Source of the DNA: a virus
Lineage: Duplodnaviria; Heunggongvirae; Uroviricota; Caudoviricetes
Virus record (IMG/VR): IMGVR_UViG_3300001373_000069
Reading direction: 5' to 3' (one strand)
Length of the DNA: 64,000 nt
Shown here: piece by piece, positions 3,181 through 53,677 of the stretch
How positions within the stretch are numbered: position 1 is the first letter of the stretch
Layout: each line of letters opens with the position of its first letter
Translations under genes and position numbers: made by a program
The notes under the pieces: model-generated
Databases searched by the model: none
What the model saw: the letters and a program-made list of their open reading frames with translations, nothing else
What the model was told of the DNA's origin: nothing

Positions 3181-4238
3181 CAGTTACCTTATACCTTTCA
3201 ATATAAGCCGGACTATCCCTTAATCTTTAAATTTCCAAAAATACCCAAATGCCTTAATAGTTTTACCATTACAGCATCTTATTATACCAGATTGTCTATT
3301 ACTAGGTAATCCAAGTTTAATAATTGCTAATGCAACAGTGTCGAAAGCCTCGACAAATCCATTTTCATCAGATTGAATCACTCCAGGATATTTAGACATA
3401 CCTTTATTAAAAGGTATTCTACCCTTAAGTCTACTCTTTTGTTCTTCTGTAAATAGTCTTCCACTACTAGCTTTAGATAATTTTAGTTTTGTATCTTTAC
3501 TATGCTTCTTACCTTTCATAGGATGTATAGCACCTGGTTTATTCAACCAGTGACCATTTAAACCAACAGACTCTCTCCAACTATCAATTTGATGCTCGGT
3601 ACGTTTTCTACCTAAAGCATTATTTGATAATTTTAACCTAACTATTGACTTATTGGATTCTGATAATCCTGAAAAGGTGTCACCGCCATCTCCTCCCATA
3701 GTCATATTAGTTAAAGAAAACCCCCACTGAATCAATTGACTGATCCAATATATTTCTAATTCATAAGCATCTTGTTTAGTTTCACAACTATCAAGTTCTT
3801 TTATTAGAGGTTCTAATCCTTTGCTTCTTAATGACTTAATCCAAGAGAGACGTTTATTCCATTTTCTAGTTTCTTTTTCAGCCTCATCCAAGTTCTTTAG
3901 ATGACCGTAAAGTCTTTTTGATAAAGACTTCTTAGTATACCCTACATATCTAACCTCATTAGATATAGGGTCTTCAAGTGTATAAATGTAATATGTTTCC
4001 ATAGTACTATTATAGTAAAAACTAGTTGCATAATCATAGATATAATAAAGATTCCCCCATTATAGTCTCTGAACCTTGAACTCTTTAAAGTTCCTTGGCT
4101 GCGGATTATCCAATTCAACATCTTGTTACCATACCATAATGATTAGTTATGCCGCGTATAGTTCGCACTATACGTTTGGTAATGTTGACTTAAGGAAGTC
4201 CCCGCAATTTAGAGGGTTTTATAAGGCCCATAGTATTA
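3181..4238 (-). other. Group I intron (approx. 1058 nt) interrupting the helicase gene, carrying a GIY-YIG HEG
   Basis: The 5' exon ends in U (..gct) followed by an in-frame stop. The intron's 3' terminal base is G. The intron contains a free-standing HEG ORF and GC-richer structured-looking flanks (4003..4235). Confidence 0.6.
3220..4002 (-). CDS. GIY-YIG homing endonuclease (intron-encoded)
   Basis: N-terminal 'YYIYTLEDPISNEVRYVGYTKKSLSKRLYGH' GIY-YIG motif. Confidence 0.85.
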   Translation of the reverse strand: METYYIYTLEDPISNEVRYVGYTKKSLSKRLYGHLKNLDEAEKETRKWNKRLSWIKSLRSKGLEPLIKELDSCETKQDAYELEIYWISQLIQWGFSLTNMTMGGDGGDTFSGLSESNKSIVRLKLSNNALGRKRTEHQIDSWRESVGLNGHWLNKPGAIHPMKGKKHSKDTKLKLSKASSGRLFTEEQKSRLKGRIPFNKGMSKYPGVIQSDENGFVEAFDTVALAIIKLGLPSNRQSGIIRCCNGKTIKAFGYFWKFKD

Positions 4239-5375
4239 AGCCTTGTACAGCGATGTAGCATAGGCATAATCAAACACAGCAAACGACTGTAAGAATTGAT
4301 TGTAGCGGCTCCATTGACCATATTCGGCGGCCTCCTTGTAACGTTGTCTACGAACTATCTCGTAAGCAGTCTGAGCTTCCTCTGTGTTCATCACGACTGG
4401 TATTCCGGTAGCTGTAGTTGGTACATTATCCAGGGCTAGATATGCACATGGTATACCAAAGGGACCTAACTGATAAGCTATCCCAGTAACTACCGAAATC
4501 TGACCATTATGGATTATAGGAGATCTGTTAACTGAAAATCCTCCTCGAGATATGATTATCTCATTTCTTTCGAATTGATGGGAGTTCTTTCCGTATATTC
4601 TCTCTCTTACCCCAGTATTTAAAAGCTCAATAGTCGAGTTCTTATAGGCTAGTATACGAGTATGATTCTTATCGTTACGATTACTAATTATATCATTAGC
4701 GGCCCGATCAACAGTACAATGAATATCATTCATAAATCTATAACCGGTATCACCTCTCATACAATCCTGTCTACCATACTCTTCTTCGAGAATATACTTA
4801 TTGAACGGTAGATCTTTATTGATGTTATCGATCTCTTGTCTAATCCTGACAGCTAATTCACCGATCGGTCCTTCGAATCGTTGCGAAGTAGTCAACTCAG
4901 CATCTATTCTATCAAATTCTTGTTTTACTGGAGGTAATTGAAATGGGTCGCCAACCACAATTAAGTGAATATCACGAATACTAACCTCGTGCAGAATTGC
5001 GTCAACCAGCGGATCATCTATCATTGATGCCTCATCTATCAAAAGAATCTCAGTACCATCAATTTTCATGTTACCGTTCTTATTTCTTTTAAATGAGATT
5101 TCTTCCGAGGAGTCGTCCATTTGCATGCCAAGTAGTTGTGCTATTGTAAAACTAGTTCCAATAGACTGCTTCAATACTTCTTTAGCAGAGTGTGCTATGG
5201 TTCCACCAACTACTTTCCTTTTCTCGTGCTGCAAAGCCTCTTTTAACATAAAAGTCTTACCACTACCAGGAGGCCCCGATAATACAAAGAACTCGTTTGC
5301 TTGAGCAGGTTTACTTAAGAAATCACGGATTCCTTCGGCAGCTACTTTCTGTTCCTGAGTTAATGTTGATATCAT
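4239..5375 (-). CDS. SF1 Dda/RecD-like DNA helicase, 5' exon
   Basis: Walker A 'GPPGSGKT', motif II 'LLIDEASMI', motif III 'VVGDPFQLPPV'; ORF stops abruptly inside motif V (..FDYAYATSLYKA*). Confidence 0.8.
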
Positions 5376-6445
5376 ACTAATACCATTTTACCTCCACTAT
5401 TAACACATAATTCATCAAGTTCTTTGTTTCTATTTGTGGAAACAGCAAACAAGCGAATATTAGACGGGAAATTAACTATACTCTCCAATCCATCTGTAAT
5501 AAAGATGACTGAATTACTATCATACTTCTTGATATGGTTGTACACGTTTTTCCACCCTTTAGCACTGAGTACCGGAGAAAATTTATAATTGACATACTCT
5601 TTTAGATCCTGTCTTGTATTTAACACAATCTCTTTAACTGGCATATTATTGAACTCCAATATGGTAACTTCAGTAACATCATCGATAAAAGAATCTAACA
5701 GGCTGAGTAGTACAGCTTTAACAATAGAAAAATACTTGGGATTAGTTGACGTAGACCAGGAAACATCCACCATAACCACAACACTGTTGTTCTGGTTCAT
5801 GATGACCTTAGATTCCCGTATGAAGGGTTTCTTCAAGGCTATGTCGGTCTTAAAGGAAGGTAAAGCAAACCTATACTTCCTAATCTTGTGAATGTCACTT
5901 AGTTTAGATAGTCTAGATACTTGAGATACTCTTGTGGGAAATAATTCACCGGCGACATGCTTCATACCATTGTAAAACTTAATGATATCAAGAAGTTCAT
6001 CGGTTAGAACCAGTTCGTTAGCAGGTATACTGGCATCGATCCCTAATAATTCAAGGTGTTCAGGGTTAATCGTAGATATATCATCTTTATAGTTCATCTG
6101 TCTAGATTCCATATCAATAAGAATGGGATTACCAGAAAGTCTACAATATTCTGCACTACGAAGGTTAACCTTAGGGGATATTAGTTTTAGTACGTTGATA
6201 GCAAACTCAATAGGATTATTGGTTTCTACAGAATCAGCATTAACCATATCCATAAGCTCAATAAGAGTTTCTGTGTACGGAGATGGTCTTCCCGTGGCAC
6301 CATAAGCATTCAACATCTTATAGATTCTTAGATAAGCCATGTCTGAAACAATACTAATCGGAATATATCCTTCATACCCCATTCTCTCTGCACTACGCAT
6401 AATATCATATGCAGTAACTATAAAGTTATGAGGAGCTTTCACCAT
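5372..6445 (-). CDS. von Willebrand factor A (vWA) domain protein, partner of MoxR-like ATPase
   Basis: MIDAS-like 'VVMVDVSWSTS'; overlaps and is co-oriented with the upstream AAA gene. Confidence 0.65.
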   Translation of the reverse strand: MVKAPHNFIVTAYDIMRSAERMGYEGYIPISIVSDMAYLRIYKMLNAYGATGRPSPYTETLIELMDMVNADSVETNNPIEFAINVLKLISPKVNLRSAEYCRLSGNPILIDMESRQMNYKDDISTINPEHLELLGIDASIPANELVLTDELLDIIKFYNGMKHVAGELFPTRVSQVSRLSKLSDIHKIRKYRFALPSFKTDIALKKPFIRESKVIMNQNNSVVVMVDVSWSTSTNPKYFSIVKAVLLSLLDSFIDDVTEVTILEFNNMPVKEIVLNTRQDLKEYVNYKFSPVLSAKGWKNVYNHIKKYDSNSVIFITDGLESIVNFPSNIRLFAVSTNRNKELDELCVNSGGKMVLV

Positions 6446-7547
6446 TGATTATAAAGAATAATTGAGACTCGACCTCACACCCAAGTTCACCTACAATTCT
6501 ATACCTTAGCGAATGTTCAAGTGTAGAACATCGGTTTATAAAGGTTAGTATCTCTGTAGTATTCTCTTGATGTTTAGAAGTAACCTCTGTTAGTTTGCTT
6601 ACAATGAAATTGATTTCAGCTAAGGCACTAGTAATAGCCCTAATGGTTGTAAGAGGTTTACTTTCCAAATTATCGGCCCATTTATTAGCTCGATCTAGTA
6701 CAGCTTTTATCCTGAATCTCTCTGTTACAAAAGAACAATACATTAAGACTTCAGTCATATCAGCAGTATCTAACCCATCAACATATTGAAGAACACGTAT
6801 ATCCTTATGAACATCAAGAAGATCAGAAGCATCCTTGATAACCCTTGGGGATACCAAATCAATAGTCCTGGCTGCAGTTTCTGCTAATACATCATAGAGA
6901 AGGCTCTGAGCATCTACTTGGTCTGGTTTAACCACCTTTAGGAAATCTAAATAAGCTTCATGAGAATAATGATCCCACATTACTTTAATTCTAATAGGGA
7001 ATCTTTCCTTATAAAAAGCAGCACTAGAATCATCAATACTGACATCTTCTGGGCTCTTGTTGGTGCATATAATAACAGAACTTATTAACGATTCGGTGAA
7101 CCTACCATTCTGTCTTAATCCGCCTTCGGTTAAGATATCCTTCAATGCAGCAGCAGTAGATGGTCTGGCATCCAGAAATTCTTCAAGAATCAATACTCCA
7201 GGACTACTAAATACACTACGATCAAACGCTGTTTCATATACAGAGGTTTCAGTCAATTTCTTGATGTTTGGTATACCAAGTAAAGCCTCGACTTCCATAT
7301 CTTCATAACCAACAATTGTTGGGGCTGGTATACTAACATAGTCAAGAAAAGCCTTTACAATTTGTGATTTACCAAATCCTCCTGGTCCATACAGTATAAC
7401 ATTCTTACCAGTTGTAGTACCGAGGTATAATGCCTCTATAACCTTGTTCATATTGTAGAAACGTTTACTAAGTGCTTCTTGAATAGATTGTAGTGAATGA
7501 GATAATATTGTCTCTCTTATCGATGTTACAACTTCTGTCCTGTTCAT
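6426..7547 (-). CDS. MoxR-like AAA+ ATPase
   Basis: Walker A 'LYGPGGFGKSQIV'; paired with downstream vWA gene. Confidence 0.65.
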   Translation of the reverse strand: MNRTEVVTSIRETILSHSLQSIQEALSKRFYNMNKVIEALYLGTTTGKNVILYGPGGFGKSQIVKAFLDYVSIPAPTIVGYEDMEVEALLGIPNIKKLTETSVYETAFDRSVFSSPGVLILEEFLDARPSTAAALKDILTEGGLRQNGRFTESLISSVIICTNKSPEDVSIDDSSAAFYKERFPIRIKVMWDHYSHEAYLDFLKVVKPDQVDAQSLLYDVLAETAARTIDLVSPRVIKDASDLLDVHKDIRVLQYVDGLDTADMTEVLMYCSFVTERFRIKAVLDRANKWADNLESKPLTTIRAITSALAEINFIVSKLTEVTSKHQENTTEILTFINRCSTLEHSLRYRIVGELGCEVESQLFFIINGESSS

Positions 7548-14574: not shown

Positions 14575-14783
14575 TTTGTTATCTTAAAGGCTCTTTATCC
14601 TTTAATTCTCATACTTTACCATAGTATGATGTTCGGACTATGTCATCACCCTAAACCAGGGTGTCGCGCGCTCGTGTCGTTTTACTGTCCGTTCTGGACT
14701 CCATACGTTAGTCTCTGCTCCTTCAATGCATTCCTGCAAAGCTTGGATCACGATTACCCTTCAAGGGAGGGCTTTCCGTGAGT

Positions 14784-15428
14784 TCACGCGATTTTAATGG
14801 GGCTTAGGATTTCATCGACTAAAGCCTTTTTTCTTTTTAAGTACCATGATGAATCAGAGTATAATAGACCAACCAGTAATTCAACATCAGTTTTTCTACG
14901 CACTCTAAGTACATATATTTTCCCCTGTTGTCTAACTGTTGAATGAATACCATAACTGTTAAAAAAGTCTTGTAGTGGTATTATTTCAGGTTCAGTAATA
15001 CACAAAGTCATATTCCAATATGGTTTTCCATCTGTAATTTGCTTTGAATAACAACCATCGCCATCTATATAACCCCTGATATAATGAATAAATAATTCTT
15101 CAGGTAAATCTAATAATACCGATTTTACACCAATATTAACTAAATCAGTATAAAGCTCTTTATTATAAGACCTCAATACTACCTTGTTATTAAATCGTTC
15201 CTCATTATTCCACACATAACTATCCTCGCTATATGATATATTAAAGAATGGAAATTCACTTTCAAATCGTTTAATAATTTCCTCATCTTTAATACTTAGT
15301 TTTAACTTACTACAACTGCTATATGCAATTTTAGAGTAATGCAAACTACCATCAGCATGAAAGAAACCTAGAAAATATGCTTTAGCTTCTGTGTCAATAT
15401 TCTTAAATTCATCATTATAAGATACCAT
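14784..15428 (-). CDS. LAGLIDADG homing endonuclease
   Basis: 'YFLGFFHADGS' and 'YIRGYIDGDGC' LAGLIDADG motifs. Confidence 0.85.
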   Translation of the reverse strand: MVSYNDEFKNIDTEAKAYFLGFFHADGSLHYSKIAYSSCSKLKLSIKDEEIIKRFESEFPFFNISYSEDSYVWNNEERFNNKVVLRSYNKELYTDLVNIGVKSVLLDLPEELFIHYIRGYIDGDGCYSKQITDGKPYWNMTLCITEPEIIPLQDFFNSYGIHSTVRQQGKIYVLRVRRKTDVELLVGLLYSDSSWYLKRKKALVDEILSPIKIA

Positions 15429-15790
15429 AACTATTTATTTGGATTAATTGTAAAATCGTACCAAATATATTATAGTTAGAAAAATTGATTGTGTTTACCC
15501 CATTTCCCCAAAGCATCTTTATTCGCACGCTTTGTAGAATACATTTTATTATTTATATAGGCTCTTTATCCTATACTTTCTACAATTTATCTTGTTATAG
15601 TTGTAGAGTAGACTATATCTTTAACTTGCAAACCGCAAGCAGTGTCCCGCTTTCGTGGAGAACTTTATAGCTTTGGCTTTACCCAGTAAGCGTCATCTCT
15701 AGTCGTTCGGCATTTACAATTATTTCTAACTGATTTAGCACGGGATTGTCCTCTTCAGGAGTTTCCCCGTTTAACGGAATTTATACTCAA

Positions 15791-16429
15791 CTATTCTATT
15801 AAATTACCTTCTTTGTTGTATACTACCCAATGAAATCCTTTACATGTTGTACTGTTGATAGAAGATCTGATAATATGTGATGCATGATTTAGTCCAAGAT
15901 CTCTGAAAGCTTGATATGGATTGTCATATGTATGCACTAAATTCCATTTAGAATCATATTTCTCGCACTTTCCATACTTACCAGTTCCTCTTCTATTTGT
16001 ATTACCAAGTTGTGCAGTTTTAGAAGATTCACTAATCTTTTTCCATACTTCTTGAGTATGTAAATGAGACTGATCTCTTAATTTTGCTTTAGCAGACATT
16101 TTGGCTTTAGTGGATTTACCAAACCTAAACCCAGTAGTTCCCAGACCAGGATAATCAGCATTATAACCATTACTAACGGTATCTAACAAATTAACCCAAT
16201 AGTACTCCATTTGTAAACAATATTCTGGGGGATAAGTCTCGAGAATCTCAAATCTAAATGATTCCTCTCCGTACTTGTTCCAAGAACGTTGTAAATGATC
16301 ATTATAATGAGTATTTGATCGTAATTTACGTCTGTGATCTGACCATCTAGAACTAAAATATCGTTGAGCTGACCCTACGTACATTTTTCCATTAACAGTA
16401 TTTGTGATAGTATATACACCTGATTTCAT
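15791..16429 (-). CDS. GIY-YIG homing endonuclease
   Basis: 'SGVYTITNTVNGKMYVGSAQRYFSSRWSDHRR'. Confidence 0.85.
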   Translation of the reverse strand: MKSGVYTITNTVNGKMYVGSAQRYFSSRWSDHRRKLRSNTHYNDHLQRSWNKYGEESFRFEILETYPPEYCLQMEYYWVNLLDTVSNGYNADYPGLGTTGFRFGKSTKAKMSAKAKLRDQSHLHTQEVWKKISESSKTAQLGNTNRRGTGKYGKCEKYDSKWNLVHTYDNPYQAFRDLGLNHASHIIRSSINSTTCKGFHWVVYNKEGNLIE

Positions 16430-31318: not shown

Positions 31319-31463
31319 ATGTACTAGAGGGACTTGAACCCCCGACCCCGCCCTCCCAGGCACGTATACTGTCAGTCTAGTCTCTTGTACTTCAAGACTT
31401 CAAACAACTTATCGTCGACGGTGGTGTTTTAACCACTACTCTAACCAACTGAGCTATAGTACA
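31319..31463 (-). ncRNA. tRNA-like element (145 nt): tRNA-Ile paralogue with ~65-nt insertion between anticodon arm and T-arm, and a non-canonical (6- or 8-nt) anticodon loop
   Basis: Perfect 7-bp acceptor TGTACTA/TAGTACA. D-arm is TAGCTCAGTTGGTTAGAGT. The 24-nt T-arm segment gagggacttgaacccccgaccccg is identical to tRNA-Ile at 36038..36061. Anticodon region is GTGGT-TAAAAC-ACCAC, followed by CGTCGACGATAAG..GGGAGGGC before the T stem. Confidence 0.55.
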
Positions 31464-32607: not shown

Positions 32608-32709
32608 TTTATATTTGTATTAAATGGTTTCAAGGGAGAAAGGTATCGAGACTCATTTCCGCGACGGTCTCTGTTGGATATCTCCGCTTTCGTATAATAC
32701 CTTTCTTTG

Positions 32710-32781
32710 TGGGGATGATGGGATTCGAACCCAAGCCTCCGAGCTTTTAGACCCGGTATTCAACCGCCGAACTGCGCCCCC
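32710..32781 (-). tRNA. tRNA-like gene (72 nt) with apparent 8-nt anticodon loop UCUAAAAG (contains CUA/UAA triplets); anticodon undetermined
   Basis: Acceptor GGGGGCG/CATCCCC (one mismatch), D-arm GTTC-GGCGGTT-GAAT, anticodon stem CCGGG/CTCGG, T-arm TGGGTTCGAATCCCA. Confidence 0.5.
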
Positions 32782-33380: not shown

Positions 33381-34456
33381 AAACGTCTGATTATTAATTA
33401 CTTAGTGGAGATGGCGGGAATCGCCTTAAAAAATAATTTCGCACAGTTCCATATTTATTATTATAATGCTATTATACATTATAAAACATAAAGATATGAA
33501 AACAATTAATTGTACATGTAACTACTGTAATAAATCTGATGAAGAACACATTAACACATAACCAAACAGTAGAATTTTTACAAGAAATAGCAAAATTAAT
33601 AAATACTTAACTTTCGTTAAGGGTTGGACTATATCATCACCCGTTCTGGGTGTCGGATGCTCTAGGCTCACCTTAGTGTCCTTAGTCTCTGAACCTTCCT
33701 CATTCTTCCATGAGGCTCGGCTGCTGATTGACATGTAAATTAAATAGCGTTCAGTATGTACTGCTTCACTTTAATGGGCTCTACATAGTCCCAACTATTT
33801 AATTTATTTAGCTTTCCAGCAATTCTTCCAATTATTTAACTGAGTATTCCTACTCAGTGGGTCCGATTCCTTTTAAACCCGCGTCCAAACATCCGGTAAT
33901 ATTAGTGCTACTTACGTGCGTAGCTGGAATGACGTCCAGCACCTAGGACCAACTGTTTACAGCTGGAGCTCCACCACCTTATTTTGAGAAAACAAGGAAA
34001 ACAACTTGCTGATTTTCTGTTTCTAGGATCACAGCTACCCAATCGCCATATTAAGCTGCAAGAGCCGTAGCGAAAGACATTACGCGAACGTTGTCCTCTA
34101 TAGTTCGATGGACTACCATCATCTTGCACGGACTAATACCCACTGACAATGCTGTCAAAACCAGTCATCCCCGATTATTATTTCATTCGATATAATCCAT
34201 AACAGAGCCACATAATAACTGAAAATTCAACATCTTTTGTTGTAATTAATTCAACGATAGTTATTAGTGTAATACAGAACATAGCAGGATGTTTTATGAA
34301 TACTTCTTTCATTCGATATCAATTTGAATAAACGACATTGTTAGAAAAGATACACCAGTACAAAATGCAATGACTTTGATTGGTTCAGTAGAGGGATATA
34401 GATCAGGGTGCATAATAGAGAATGCTATGAAAAGCATACCCACAACAATACCCCAT

Positions 34457-45039: not shown

Positions 45040-45327
45040 CTACTCAAATTCAAGCCATTGAGAATTGATGTATTCCCAATTATCATCAGGATTAAGAGTC
45101 CAATCTACCATACAACTACACAGACAATTACGTCCTACTAGTGTAATCTCATAGTTAAACATCTCTTCCGAACTATCCAAACTGTTATAACTCTTATTCA
45201 CTGCATTGATATAACGAGTCTTAAGTCTATTCTTTTGTAAGAATCTCTCAAAATCGTTAATATCTTTGGTTACTAGATTATGTGAACTCTCCAATTTCTC
45301 AAGGAATTCTTTGATAGTTATTTTCAT
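45040..45327 (-). CDS. hypothetical protein (95 aa)
   Basis: ORF track. Confidence 0.45.
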   Translation of the reverse strand: MKITIKEFLEKLESSHNLVTKDINDFERFLQKNRLKTRYINAVNKSYNSLDSSEEMFNYEITLVGRNCLCSCMVDWTLNPDDNWEYINSQWLEFE

Positions 45328-45563
45328 AATCCTAAGTAATCAGGTATTAAACCAGCATTTGCTAGTCGTTCATATTCCGAATTAATAATCCTTAGCGCAA
45401 ATGAGCTGGGTTCTCTGTTAAAAGCAGTTCTTGATGTACATTTCATCCAAATAAATTTAGGATTAGCAACATCGAGAATAGCTTGACAAGCAGATTTACT
45501 AAGATTACTTATATCCACTAATGTTGGGTGGATCTTTTCTGCGATTGGGTTTCCTTTTTTCAT
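45324..45563 (-). CDS. hypothetical protein (79 aa)
   Basis: ORF track. Confidence 0.45.
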   Translation of the reverse strand: MKKGNPIAEKIHPTLVDISNLSKSACQAILDVANPKFIWMKCTSRTAFNREPSSFALRIINSEYERLANAGLIPDYLGL

Positions 45564-46237
45564 AATGTGTTAGTTTTAAATTATTTTTAGCACCCTCTTG
45601 TCTAGTTAAATGGTAGGCGACACGAATATCGCGATCATTGTATAGAGTAGGGTCACTGGTTGACAGTATGGGCGAGACTGTCTGCTATTTAACCATTGCT
45701 GAGAACTTTTCGTGTTGTGTGTTTTAGAACCTAAGGAACCGCACACATACCATCCTTTCTCAAGGGAACAACACGCATAGGGTTACCTAGTAACTGTGTG
45801 GGATTGCAGAGTGTAAGATTCCACACTATCCATCTGCATTTTAAGTTACGTACCTTGTTAGGCCTATGATCTTCGTAGTCCGCGCCGTCAGCCTCCTGGC
45901 TGCCTCACATATACCGGTTCACTTCTAGCCGTTGTCATATACACTTATTCTTCGTAGCTGGCCTACGTGTCGCTATCATAGATACCAAGTCTATAAGAGC
46001 TATTCTTCATGTACTGACCAATTAACATACAGATCTATATACTAGCTACGCCCTGGTCGATACTCAGGCTTATCAAGGATCACTTGACTGTACTATTAGT
46101 ATGTTATGTTTTAATAGAGCCGAGAGAAGGATTCACACCTTCGCGGTGGGTCATCGGACATATGCACAAGTCCTCATGTACTCTTGATGGGCATTTCTCA
46201 CTACATCATTCCTATTACGTAGCATCTCGGCATTGTT

Positions 46238-46546
46238 TTATTCAATAATACATACTGGAATAGTATTCACATATATACCAATAAGCTCGCATGGTTTATA
46301 TTGATTACCATTTTCTTCCACCATTATTAACCATTCGTAACCACGACTTGTGCTATAATCTTTAATAATCTCTTTAATGGTTTGTATACCAAATGGAGTA
46401 ACAATCTTCTGCCCTTCTTCGTATAAATACCTTTTAGAAGTATCTATAAGATCCTCGTAGGATTCCAACGGTCGGTTAGGATTCTTAGCTATTATAAACC
46501 TATCCTCCATTTTACTTAAGAAATAATCTTTATGTAATGTAGTCAT
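46238..46546 (-). CDS. hypothetical protein (102 aa)
   Basis: ORF track. Confidence 0.45.
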   Translation of the reverse strand: MTTLHKDYFLSKMEDRFIIAKNPNRPLESYEDLIDTSKRYLYEEGQKIVTPFGIQTIKEIIKDYSTSRGYEWLIMVEENGNQYKPCELIGIYVNTIPVCIIE

Positions 46547-46765
46547 AAGTAATGTTTAATAGTTAATAATAAAATGTACTCACGGCATAGGCACCCGGGT
46601 CCGCAATTGCTTGCGCGACTATTTACCGCCCGGGTCTACCCTTAACCGCTTTACTCGATAAACGAGATTCTAGTAGGGTCTCTCACCCTTTAACACTGCC
46701 TTATCGGTAGTGATCACATCGTCTTCTGACCTAGGCCCCGGATGTGGAGCTGTTCATAAACTAGC

Positions 46766-47134
46766 TTAAGTAGTATTTTTCAGTTCAGCTTCAATTTCTC
46801 GTATCTTAGCTAAACTAGCTTTCAATCCTAATCCAGGATGATATTCAGTCCAAGTCTTTACAGCCCTAAGCTTATGTCCCTCTCCAAGCATGATAATTAT
46901 CATCTCTTTGAGTTTCTCATCATCACCCGGCGTCGGTAGTGGAGTAATATCATGTTCTCCACAAATAGCAGAATACTTCCTACGATAAAACTCTTCAGTC
47001 TCTGGAGCCATTGCACCTGCTACGAATGCATCATATACCTTACACTCCTGTGATTGGTAATACGTTGTATCATAGTCATTTCGCGGACCCTTAAGTCCGG
47101 CATGCTCGTAAGCAGCTTGTTCAATCTTATTCAT
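46766..47134 (-). CDS. hypothetical protein (122 aa)
   Basis: ORF track. Confidence 0.45.
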   Translation of the reverse strand: MNKIEQAAYEHAGLKGPRNDYDTTYYQSQECKVYDAFVAGAMAPETEEFYRRKYSAICGEHDITPLPTPGDDEKLKEMIIIMLGEGHKLRAVKTWTEYHPGLGLKASLAKIREIEAELKNTT

Positions 47135-48942: not shown

Positions 48943-50238
48943 AGGCGCACTTCAACAAGTAACTATTAGGTCGACACGAAAAAAGCAAATCCCAAAAGGA
49001 CCAACTAACCAACGCAACTCACTCATCATACCAATACTAACCTTAAGGTGATTGATACAGACAGCAAGTAAATGTTTTACACCCTCACCCATAACCATAC
49101 TTAGTGCTCTGAGCATCCCTAAGGACTCTAAACTAAGTGATCCATACTCACAATGGTATGATTAATTATGGTATTACTCCCGGTTCTTTAACCCTAAGGC
49201 CCGATTTGTAATAATCATTTACATGAGTTCAGGTGATCTGTGCTGGTACTAGGAGACGACTCCCCATACAGACAGCAATCAAATATCGTAGACTCTCGTA
49301 GCGAGAGAATAATGTGTGTAGTCATTGGCACTCACTAGTACGTCGACCCAACAGCATCAGAGAATCACTCCTCTAACACCGTGTGGATCAACTACTAACA
49401 CATCGCATCGGATGCATTAATACTATAACATTTAAAAGTATGAGCCCAAATAAAAAAGCCAACCACCCAATTGCGCGAGGGTAGCTGGCTCAAAAACAAT
49501 TAATCAATTAACCAAAAATCACACTATGAAGACTCCAACTCTTGACAAAGCTGTACCGTTTGATTCACTCCGGACCGGTTGTCCGTGTCATGGTTAGTTT
49601 TATATTATCCTTACCAATGATGTCGTCACACACCATTACTCCTGCTCAAGAGTATTCAAAGAATAATACGCCGTGGTATACGCTACCGATCTAATCCCAC
49701 TAACTCTATTAATAGAGAAGGAGATATGTCGTGTGCTTGTATTTCGGTCATGTCAATGGTATTCCTGCCCATTAAGCATATGTTACAACGTTGGAATGTC
49801 TTATTAGGACTCGTTGTTGGTTATGGCATGTCGTAGTCTACCATACTACCACACGTTTACCTGATTTTATAGTCTGCACTAACTTGTTCTTATCCAAGCG
49901 ATTAGGATTCCATAATGATAGTATTGATCGCATTTACTAACTATCATAAGAACACAGTAGCCCCACAGGTTTGTCACGGTTTATGATCCGTAAAGTTGAG
50001 GTTCCGCCACCTCCGTCCTACCATTAAGTTATATCTAACGGTAGCAAACTTATCTCGACGTTTTATTTGTGTATCCGAGAATGCTTGAACTGGGTCATCT
50101 AGTTAGGATACCCGTTGTTCAGTAATCTTTATATGATAGCAATAGCCTCATTACAATGATTAGTAATTAATAAAATTAGAACTCAAGAAAGGGGACTACA
50201 CGAATGCAATCCCCTATCAAAGTCTTTGTGCCCGGATC

Positions 50239-52999: not shown

Positions 53000-53221
53000 C
53001 TAGTTATTAGGATATTTGATTGATCTAACAACTTTGATAATAAACACAATAGCCGCTACATAGAAGATAAAGATACCAAGGCTTAAGGTGCCTAGGAATT
53101 CAATGTCCTTAGGGTTGACACTGATAGCATATTTCCTTATACACATGAAGAGTGCTATAAATAATAAACTCACAACGATGATCAGTAGGTCTCTGCCTTG
53201 ATCTGCATTAAATCTTTTCAT
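53000..53221 (-). CDS. small membrane protein (73 aa)
   Basis: Two TM helices. Confidence 0.4.
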   Translation of the reverse strand: MKRFNADQGRDLLIIVVSLLFIALFMCIRKYAISVNPKDIEFLGTLSLGIFIFYVAAIVFIIKVVRSIKYPNN

Positions 53222-53677
53222 AGTATGTAAAATTAAACCTACGAAGTTTATTCCTCGTCAGGTAAGTTAATGCTGGTGTAGTGGAAATATCGCTTTTGTT
53301 TGATGGGGTACCCCGGTGACCAAACTAGAATTTCATTTCCCCTGGGAAACCTGACGGGGCTCAAAGTATATGACCTATACACTATCATGTACACAAAGTA
53401 ATTTTATATAGAATACAATAGTACCATACTAAGCTAGGTGTACCCGGATAGTAGAATGAATATCCATACCCAACTACAAATAGACCGGGGGTAGTTTATA
53501 TGAGGTACCTATATTTACAGATACTACAACATGCATACCACGAGTATTTTAACTATAATAAGAATATACAAAACTTCTAGAACGTAGGAGTAGTAAGGGA
53601 ACTGAAACTTTTGGTCGATTACACATGTTATATGTTAAGCGAGTTCGACCATTTTTTAAAGTTTATAGTAAAGACGC
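53222..53677. promoter_or_regulatory. Divergent intergenic region between the minus-strand block and the plus-strand block; likely carries promoters for both
   Basis: 456-nt ORF-free AT-rich spacer with the flanking genes diverging from it; no specific promoter motif could be verified. Confidence 0.3.

Follow-up and report, generated by a model that had tools for sequence, protein, structure and literature searches.

Introduction

To our knowledge, large structured RNAs without known function (GOLLD, ROOL and OLE) are rare, and two of these three classes occur in phages beside tRNA genes. GOLLD combines a universally conserved 3′ region with a less conserved 5′ region and a linker that sometimes carries phage tRNAs; in phages it is located near tRNA islands, and the studied example lies downstream of a tRNA (PMC12286853). 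ROOL, likewise large and ornate, occurs in phages and prophages, often beside tRNAs (PMC5737381), and has a disordered variable linker (PMC12286853). Both GOLLD and ROOL form RNA-only cages (PMC12286853). In this work we analyze a locus in a 64,000-nt stretch of DNA from a Caudoviricetes virus (IMG/VR record IMGVR_UViG_3300001373_000069; the whole stretch is hereafter the window), in which two segments without sizeable open reading frames (ORFs), at 45564–46237 and 46547–46765, flank a gene for a 102-aa protein. We show that these segments are non-coding and that their helices are kept by compensatory and G·U changes on the minus strand. We consider it probable that they form one conserved non-coding RNA locus (46773–45583, minus strand), which is split by the 102-aa gene and encodes a large modular structured RNA.

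The RNA is organized like GOLLD and ROOL and matches no catalogued RNA family. Its likeness to GOLLD is that of a multi-domain phage RNA of 0.4–1 kb near tRNA islands, with a conserved 3′ domain, a divergent and variable 5′ domain and a variable linker that may hold tRNAs or tRNA-like elements. The window contains 15–18 tRNAs, the nearest ~2.5 kb from the locus, and the locus can lie directly downstream of a tRNA or tRNA-like element: the copy in one relative (L016) starts 3 nt after such an element, and in another (L014) a tRNA is found ~450 nt downstream. The locus differs from GOLLD in that its linker also holds a protein-coding gene and in that the embedded element is a tRNA derivative and not a functional-looking tRNA. 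With ROOL it shares large size, a phage setting, a variable linker and a tRNA neighborhood, but the 5′ and 3′ parts of ROOL are intertwined and co-evolving, whereas here the 5′ part is exchangeable. The GOLLD and ROOL cages are homo-oligomeric nanocages. Since the organization of GOLLD is reproduced point by point and neither the GOLLD nor the ROOL model matches the element, we regard it as GOLLD-like in layout and not as a member of that family.

Results

Coding status and composition of the segments

All genes around 45564–46765 are oriented on the minus strand, and the following frame or interrupt the two segments:

46766–47134, minus: 122-aa gene, upstream of segment A
46238–46546, minus: 102-aa gene, inserted into the variable linker
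45324–45563, minus: 79-aa ORF, downstream of the RNA locus

The first-pass annotation of this sequence had described both segments as ORF-free, and neither the 674-nt segment (45564–46237) nor the 219-nt segment (46547–46765, segment A) contains an ORF of 60 aa or more; the only ORFs touching them are a 46-aa GTG ORF (45606–45746, minus) and a 54-aa TTG ORF (46084–46248, plus). Their GC content is likewise elevated (0.429 and 0.466, respectively, vs 0.372 for the window). Each of the six frames of both segments contains between 5 and 19 stops, with TAA, TAG and TGA each present in nearly every frame and at least two of the three kinds in all of them. A single stop-codon reassignment therefore cannot open either segment, and coding under an alternative genetic code, which the same annotation had entertained, is ruled out.

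Searches of ten neighboring proteins against Pfam and PHROG returned no credible match and only two weak, sub-threshold ones. The 79-aa ORF has no homolog in the protein collection, where it is itself missing, and syntenic relatives carry unrelated small genes in its place, so that its status as a gene is uncertain.

Comparative dataset

Four independent lineages were compared. L009 (ENA, 92 kb) and L011 (Logan, 12 kb), which are near-identical, share synteny with the window, as do the short L010 and L012, and the 122-aa neighbor has three relatives in the protein collection, on contigs syntenic with the window. L014 (IMG/VR, 175 kb) was found with a DNA pattern taken from the best-conserved block, and its three proteins flanking the locus are 37–43% identical in amino acids to those of the window. 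A pattern for the 3′ hairpin retrieved L015 and L016 (IMG/VR), which are identical across the element and have no detectable homolog of a window protein within 10 kb. The locus is present once per genome fragment, with its modules always collinear.

Other searches were negative: blastn against INPHARED phages gave no close relatives and no similar DNA, the 276-aa and 122-aa neighbors retrieved no IMG/VR relatives, an exact look-up of the window's own proteins gave no matches, and neither did two further DNA-pattern scans of IMG/VR nor two of genome contigs. The sole match of a metagenome DNA-pattern scan, L013, was discarded as a chance match in a high-GC bacterial contig, and an upstream gap in L001 and L002, considered as a homolog of segment A, turned out to be a tRNA-Tyr. 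No paralog of the locus was detected inside the window, including the ORF-free gap that holds a Hatchet ribozyme.

Relation between the two segments and the intervening gene

The 102-aa gene is absent from L009 and L010, where the counterparts of window positions 46564 and 46247 lie ~30 nt apart. Given the absence of the gene and the contiguity of the segments in L009, the 102-aa gene is an insertion. L011 carries a 188-aa version of it at the same insertion point, and L014 and L016 have no gene there. The locus spans ~400 nt in L016, ~730 nt in L014, ~1.0 kb in L009 and 1.19 kb in the window, ORF included. The coordinates of two segments flanking a 102-aa gene hold, but their description as separate segments missed a single unit split by the gene.

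Between the window and L009/L011, the non-coding blocks are 78–89% identical in nucleotides and the adjacent genes 70–76%; between the window and L014, module B1 of the linker (described below) is 82% identical in nucleotides, vs 37–43% amino acid identity for the flanking proteins. Four stretches, CCUUGAGAAAG, UCUCAGCAA, GUGACCCUA and GGGUGCUAA, are invariant in 5/5 sequences and occur once per genome fragment in the same order, and both the 5′ motif and the 3′ core of the window recur in L015/L016. Conservation of these blocks above the level of neighboring genes contradicts the notion of poorly conserved junk.

The surroundings of the locus are not preserved. Upstream lies the 122-aa gene in the window, a 131-aa homolog of it in L009/L011, a homolog of a 119-aa gene in L014 and a tRNA-Leu-like element in L016, which makes three different upstream genes, two of them homologous. 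The four downstream genes are unrelated (79 aa, 59 aa, 119 aa, and an RNA ligase preceded by a 3-codon ORF). The locus is independent of the identity of its flanking genes, and the fact that these differ in every lineage argues against an intron or a gene-specific leader.

The 102-aa protein is a beta-barrel with an SH3/Tudor/KOW-like fold (weak scores). Searches revealed no Pfam or PHROG domain and no endonuclease, maturase or reverse-transcriptase fold in it, and its identification as a homing endonuclease was rejected. Elsewhere its family is encoded by free-standing genes located between tRNA genes. In two large phages with this gene family, L007 and L008, RAGATH-34 RNAs are present and a suppressor tRNA (anticodon CUA) directly follows the 102-aa homolog:

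L007 1738–1835 and 5338–5410; L008 1200–1304 and 5355–5427: RAGATH-34 RNAs and suppressor tRNAs

Anatomy of the RNA and comparative evidence for its helices

Read 5′ to 3′ on the minus strand, the proposed RNA would consist of the 5′ motif, a variable 5′ and middle domain, a linker with the ORF and B1, and a core made of X, J, Y and Z:

46750–46773, minus: 5′ motif CUACUUAAGCUAGUUUAUGAACAG, overlapping the stop codon of the upstream 122-aa gene
46547–46765, minus: segment A (219 nt), lineage-variable 5′ domain, its 5′ half poorly conserved and its 3′ ~90 nt conserved
46582–46649, minus: long irregular hairpin (A hairpin), the 3′ 68 nt of segment A, capped by a GNRA loop (GCAA in the window, GUAA in L009/L011)
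46119–46231, minus: B1, a 113-nt tRNA-derived, cloverleaf-like RNA in the linker of the RNA locus
45776–46118, minus: variable middle region with mosaic sub-modules, from alignments with L014 and L009/L011
45583–45775, minus: 3′ core (X, J, Y, Z), ~190 nt conserved
45711–45775, minus: helix X (CGUGUUGU/ACAACACG), enclosing the CCUUGAGAAAGG hairpin and a lineage-variable hairpin
45754–45765, minus: CCUUGAGAAAGG hairpin, its first 11 nt (CCUUGAGAAAG) invariant and its last base variable
45696–45710, minus: linker J, AAAAGUUCUCAGCAA, of which the UCUCAGCAA part is invariant
45657–45695, minus: hairpin Y, in the same place with unrelated closing helices in four lineages
45583–45656, minus: hairpin Z, GUG-ACCCU...AGGGU-GCUAAAAAU, ending 19 nt before the next start codon

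The curated helices of the 3′ core are 90% paired, vs 39–51% when partners are slid, and ten pairs have changed on both sides, a number reached in 0/500 shuffles. Helix X comprises 8 bp that are 100% paired in 5 sequences while changing at three positions (C-G/U-A; G-C/A-U/G·U; U-A/C-G). Hairpin Y is closed by UGGUU/AACCA, AGAAUAACUA/UAGUUAUUCU, GGUG/CACC or GUAGUUAA/UUAACUAC, depending on the lineage. The closing helix of hairpin Z and its flanks are kept in 5 sequences, with the exception of two 3′-tail positions that vary in L014; its inner helices covary (UCUA/UAGA to UCUG/CAGA; GCGAUA/UGUCGC to GCGGUU/AACCGC), and L014 and L016 have different long stems within it. Single-sequence folds delimited by the conserved anchors recover the same X, Y, Z architecture in four lineages. 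In linker J, the sequence UUCUCAG is complementary to UUGAGAA of the GAGA hairpin, as read from the sequence; both strings are invariant, and a pseudoknot or switch is plausible.

Comparable changes are seen upstream. In the A hairpin, 96% of cells pair, vs 34–45% with slid partners, with many G·U pairs and four pairs changed on both sides, including 48/78 (U-A/C-G/G-C) and 6/93 (A-U/C-G/G-C). The inverted repeat that the first-pass annotation had quoted here, ACCCGGG...CCCGGGU, is present at 46582–46649, and its closing pair is G-C, U-A or C-G across three lineages. In the middle region, positions 46041–46084 are common to L014 only, and 45915–45936 and 45776–45868 are common to L009/L011; the alignments reveal compensatory changes from GCAGA/UCUGC to GCGGA/UCCGC, from GUAAC/GUUAC to GCAAC/GUUGU and from GCCU/AGGU to GCCC/GGGU. 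The 5′ motif is unique in the window and occurs once each in L014, L015 and L016, located behind the 122-aa gene, the homolog of the 119-aa gene or the tRNA-like element; L009/L011 retain only AUGAACAG.

Column shuffling with RNAalifold on the 674-nt segment (window, L009 and L011) yields a consensus energy of −113 vs −78 ± 5.5, with 16 compensatory pairs vs 8.7 ± 3.2 and 14 broken pairs vs 28 ± 4.9. A coding control of equal length (z −2.0; compensatory pairs 12 vs 15; broken pairs 48 vs 40) lacks such a signal, which indicates that the test is not simply biased. The curated helices of B1, the core and the A hairpin contain ~32 G·U cells that would be A·C mismatches on the plus strand; the RNA strand is thus the minus strand, like that of the surrounding genes and tRNAs. 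Scans for promoters and terminators found nothing beyond chance, and the idea of a repeated promoter-like motif was abandoned, the 3′ tail and the 5′ motif each being non-repeated in the window.

The B1 cloverleaf

B1 folds into a four-way junction of a 7-bp acceptor stem, a 7-bp arm, an extended arm (CAUC/GAUG and GGAC/GUCC) and a T arm (GAAGG-UGUGAAU-CCUUC, 46126–46142). It is 82–86% identical in nucleotides across four lineages, with 99% of cells paired, 2 compensatory changes and 4 G·U changes. In all four copies, the 7-bp acceptor directly adjoins a 5-bp T stem with the 7-nt loop U(G/U)UGAAU. The T arm is nearly the same as in the tRNA-Thr of the window, differing mainly at one loop base. 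A covariance model built on B1 matches genuine tRNAs in the window and at five other loci (E 2e-6 to 4e-4). B1 is thus a tRNA derivative. In L014 it is found 1.3 kb away from the remaining modules, between the 122-aa homolog and a gene for a NADAR-domain protein (6227–6679), which identifies it as an autonomous, independent module.

The resemblance to tRNA (RF00005) lies in the acceptor stacked on a 5-bp T stem, the 7-nt loop and the cloverleaf junction. In contrast to a tRNA, B1 has no 5-bp anticodon stem with 7-nt loop and no 3–4-bp D stem; the anticodon arm is replaced by the longer, conserved extended arm, which carries an invariant 12-nt bulge, and the place of the D arm is taken by the 7-bp arm. 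No CCA is encoded and there is no consistent anticodon. Neither the Rfam tRNA model (29 bits) nor default ARAGORN calls B1, and no tRNA is found in 45300–47000 at E ≤ 10. Only relaxed ARAGORN settings (-ps75/-ps80) report the acceptor and T arm, in all four copies and with inconsistent anticodons, and a tRNA containing an intron was rejected because of that inconsistency. A hammerhead (CYGAUGA...GAA) was also dismissed, since its core positions, judged by eye, do not fit. Besides tRNA, the tRNA-like domain of tmRNA is among the systems closest to B1, and the stable RNAs C and D of the phage T4 tRNA region are further comparators.

Two tRNA-like elements of L016 (with identical counterparts in L015) are called by neither ARAGORN nor Rfam. 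One (3621–3745, minus), whose end lies 3 nt ahead of the 5′ motif of the RNA, has acceptor, D and T arms of the tRNA-Leu type, with ~75 nt substituting for the anticodon arm and the variable arm; the other (3322–3428, minus) matches the B1 model with 22.7 bits. In the window, ARAGORN predicts a tRNA with an undetermined two-base 'anticodon' (32709–32781, minus), and a 145-nt stretch matching the Rfam tRNA model (31319–31463, minus) is possibly a tRNA with an insertion. Derivatives of tRNA that are enlarged in the middle may be common among phages of this group.

Searches for known RNA families

Rfam 15 identifies 21 RNAs in the window (16 tRNA matches, four group I introns and a Hatchet ribozyme), none of them in the target segments. 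At gathering score, no known family is detected in the element of the window or its relatives, and at E ≤ 10 no credible family match is found in three versions of the element (window, L009 and L016). In 45300–47000, the permissive search (E ≤ 10) returned only chance matches of snoRNA type, and ARAGORN returned nothing.

Intron models were negative as well. The catalytic core of group I introns (RF00028; P3–P9 and G-binding site) has no match in 45300–47000 at E ≤ 10, no Intron_gpII or group-II-D1D4 match was obtained, and the 102-aa ORF lacks a reverse-transcriptase or maturase signature. No fused 122+79 protein occurs among the matches of the 122-aa protein, whose relatives are complete 131-aa proteins. 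Structure, GNRA loops and the possibility of a peripheral ORF are shared with group I introns; in contrast to them, the locus has no catalytic-core match, no interrupted host gene and no conserved flanks. The Rfam models of the ribozymes Hatchet, hammerhead, twister, twister-sister, pistol and HDV-like do not match the target at E ≤ 10.

A sub-threshold similarity to the AdoCbl-II riboswitch (RF01689) was observed in L009 (11107–11192) and L011, with 23.4 bits and E 0.012, below the gathering score of 36.5; the window version has no match. In L009/L011, a hairpin pair inside helix X spans the whole 81-position model and has two T-loop-like 7-nt loops, but its B12-box side is poorly matched, and the window, L014 and L016 have unrelated hairpins in its place. 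This exchange indicates that the AdoCbl-like subdomain is not the defining feature of the RNA.

Other features of the window and its relatives

The segments had been likened to the ORF-free gap at 48943–50238. They are alike in kind, but that gap has no sequence similarity to the locus and holds a Hatchet self-cleaving ribozyme, conserved in syntenic relatives. Spacers elsewhere had been given as under 60 nt; the window has further long gaps, mostly filled by tRNAs and group I introns. One more ORF-free gap, again of 674 nt, lies at a switch of gene orientation (53004–53677), and parts of it (53250–53559) are 82–84% identical to L009, above coding level. For the Ro60/TROVE-like protein, tblastn finds relatives in mycobacteriophages, where they carry the annotation of Ro-like RNA-binding proteins. 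The RNA is followed in L015/L016 by a gene for an RNA ligase (PF09414 and PHA02142 OB fold), which together with the NADAR-domain gene that follows B1 in L014 hints at an RNA-repair or anti-defense neighborhood.

49859–49997 of the window, minus; 4160–4299 of L009; 710–849 of L011: Hatchet self-cleaving ribozyme (77–84 bits)
4022–4248, 14608–14867, 15580–15842 and 33605–33884, all minus: four group I introns, at or above Rfam gathering score
23297–24883, minus: Ro60/TROVE-like protein (DUF2828 and DUF7788)

Discussion

A structured RNA, as opposed to an ordinary spacer, was the suggestion of the first-pass annotation, and comparison with related phages, one of the checks it proposed, favors that view by yielding blocks that outconserve the neighboring genes and helices kept by compensatory changes. 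We infer a stable trans-acting RNA. The locus would be co-transcribed with the surrounding minus-strand genes, and processing of the tRNA type, at B1 or at neighboring tRNA-like elements, may set the ends of the transcript. GNRA loops, T-loop-like hairpins and possibly a pseudoknot between hairpin and linker J would support a compact tertiary fold, and the product would be an abundant, stable RNA acting in trans and not on the adjacent gene. By analogy with GOLLD and ROOL, its partner may be a molecule connected with tRNA or translation, or further copies of itself.

Several observations weigh against a single large RNA of the GOLLD and ROOL kind. Its modules rearrange: L014 has B1 at another site, L016 lacks both the A hairpin and the middle region, and L009/L011 have lost most of the 5′ motif or never had it. 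Such rearrangement means that several independent RNAs fit as well as one large RNA, and a translated 309-nt ORF inside a single functional RNA would be unusual. GOLLD (RF01998) gives no match at gathering score in the window and relatives and none at E ≤ 10 in the window, L009 and L016, and ROOL (RF03087) has no model match in the element. Segment A as a whole has an alifold z of −2.7, vs −2.8 for its coding control. Single-sequence thermodynamic stability is not significant against shuffles on either strand, with minimum free energy (MFE) z-scores of +1.6 and +0.4 for the 674-nt segment and −1.3 and −1.5 for segment A. The dense inverted repeats reported for the segments are therefore not beyond chance at the level of a single sequence, and their support comes from the helices backed by the relatives. 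With four lineages, L009 and L011 being near-identical, the covariation statistics are weak by R-scape standards.

The main rival to one large RNA is a cluster of independent small structured RNAs (the A hairpin, B1, the ~200-nt core and others), array-like and separately processed, an explanation that we deem possible though doubtful. It would account for the 1.3 kb that separate B1 from the remaining modules in L014, for an ORF that can sit between modules, for the lack of the A hairpin and middle blocks in L016 and for the mosaic distribution of sub-modules among lineages, and it agrees with the usual location of the 102-aa gene family between tRNA genes. Yet the 5′ motif and 3′ core co-travel into a phage that shares no neighboring proteins, module order is always collinear, and single large RNAs typically have a fixed core with variable insertions at its periphery. 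GOLLD behaves alike in its 5′, linker and 3′ parts (PMC12286853). Control in cis is improbable. A riboswitch-like or translational leader of the immediate downstream gene would place hairpin Z where it is found, 11–17 nt before an ATG in the window, L009/L011 and L014 (19, 22 and 16 nt, respectively, when measured from the end of the conserved tail), with 20–26 nt from GGGUGCUAA to the ATG; alternative pairings between the hairpin loop UUGAGAA and the linker UUCUCAG, and the AdoCbl-II-like subdomain of L009/L011 (23.4 bits, E 0.012), would also suit it. The four downstream proteins are unrelated, however, and any element of a tightly packed genome has an ATG shortly after it. The AdoCbl-like part does not reach gathering score, the window, L014 and L016 lack it, and 0.4–1 kb far exceeds known leaders.

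The intron-like alternative raised by the first-pass annotation is very unlikely and largely refuted; here the locus would be an intron, self-splicing or mobile in some other way, that encodes the 102-aa protein. In its favor are the embedding of an ORF in structured RNA, the GNRA loops and conserved ends, and the four genuine group I introns that the window has at other sites. No group I or group II match is found at E ≤ 10 in the three element versions, however; the flanking ORFs are complete and have free-standing relatives (the 122-aa homologs are 131-aa proteins); the flanks change from lineage to lineage, a tRNA-like element being among them; and the ORF, which three lineages lack, has free-standing homologs in tRNA arrays and none of the folds of an endonuclease, maturase or reverse transcriptase. 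Least probable of all, to a degree that makes it almost negligible, is that the DNA has no function, being left over from decayed genes or tRNA genes, or that it serves as a site in the DNA itself, for example an origin, packaging signal or recombination hotspot. Non-significant MFE z-scores, a scrambled gene order around the locus and the resemblance of B1 to a degenerated tRNA are what this reading can draw on. Against it stand conservation above that of adjacent coding DNA, long invariant stretches common to phages without detectable nearby protein similarity and the lack of iterons or repeats in the searches made. In addition, changes tolerate G·U and not A·C, which denotes RNA and not duplex DNA.

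A more specific form of the single-RNA explanation, argued by analogy and in our view unlikely, is that the locus represents a third, uncatalogued class of giant ornate phage RNA, in which the 3′ core would drive higher-order folding or assembly, the linker would carry cargo and the RNA would act on host tRNA or translation. If so, the linker cargo would be a tRNA mimic, joined in some lineages by a protein gene, and the RNA could serve, for instance, as a decoy for tRNA-targeting defense nucleases or as a scaffold that binds tRNA elbows. Such a role would fit the nearby RNA ligase, NADAR and Ro-like genes.

For annotation, these results make the 102-aa gene a passenger, and the apparent gaps on either side of it should be annotated as one non-coding RNA locus. 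The compact ~400-nt version of L016 and the large ~1 kb version of L009 would be natural variants for structural work, and B1, 82–86% identical between phages whose flanking proteins are ~40% identical, is a candidate tRNA mimic in phage–host conflict. If our interpretation is correct, an RNA family unrelated to GOLLD and ROOL has the same layout, in which the 3′ domain is conserved, the 5′ domain can be exchanged and the linker carries tRNA-like cargo, and this would suggest that the organization is a recurring solution and not the quirk of one family.

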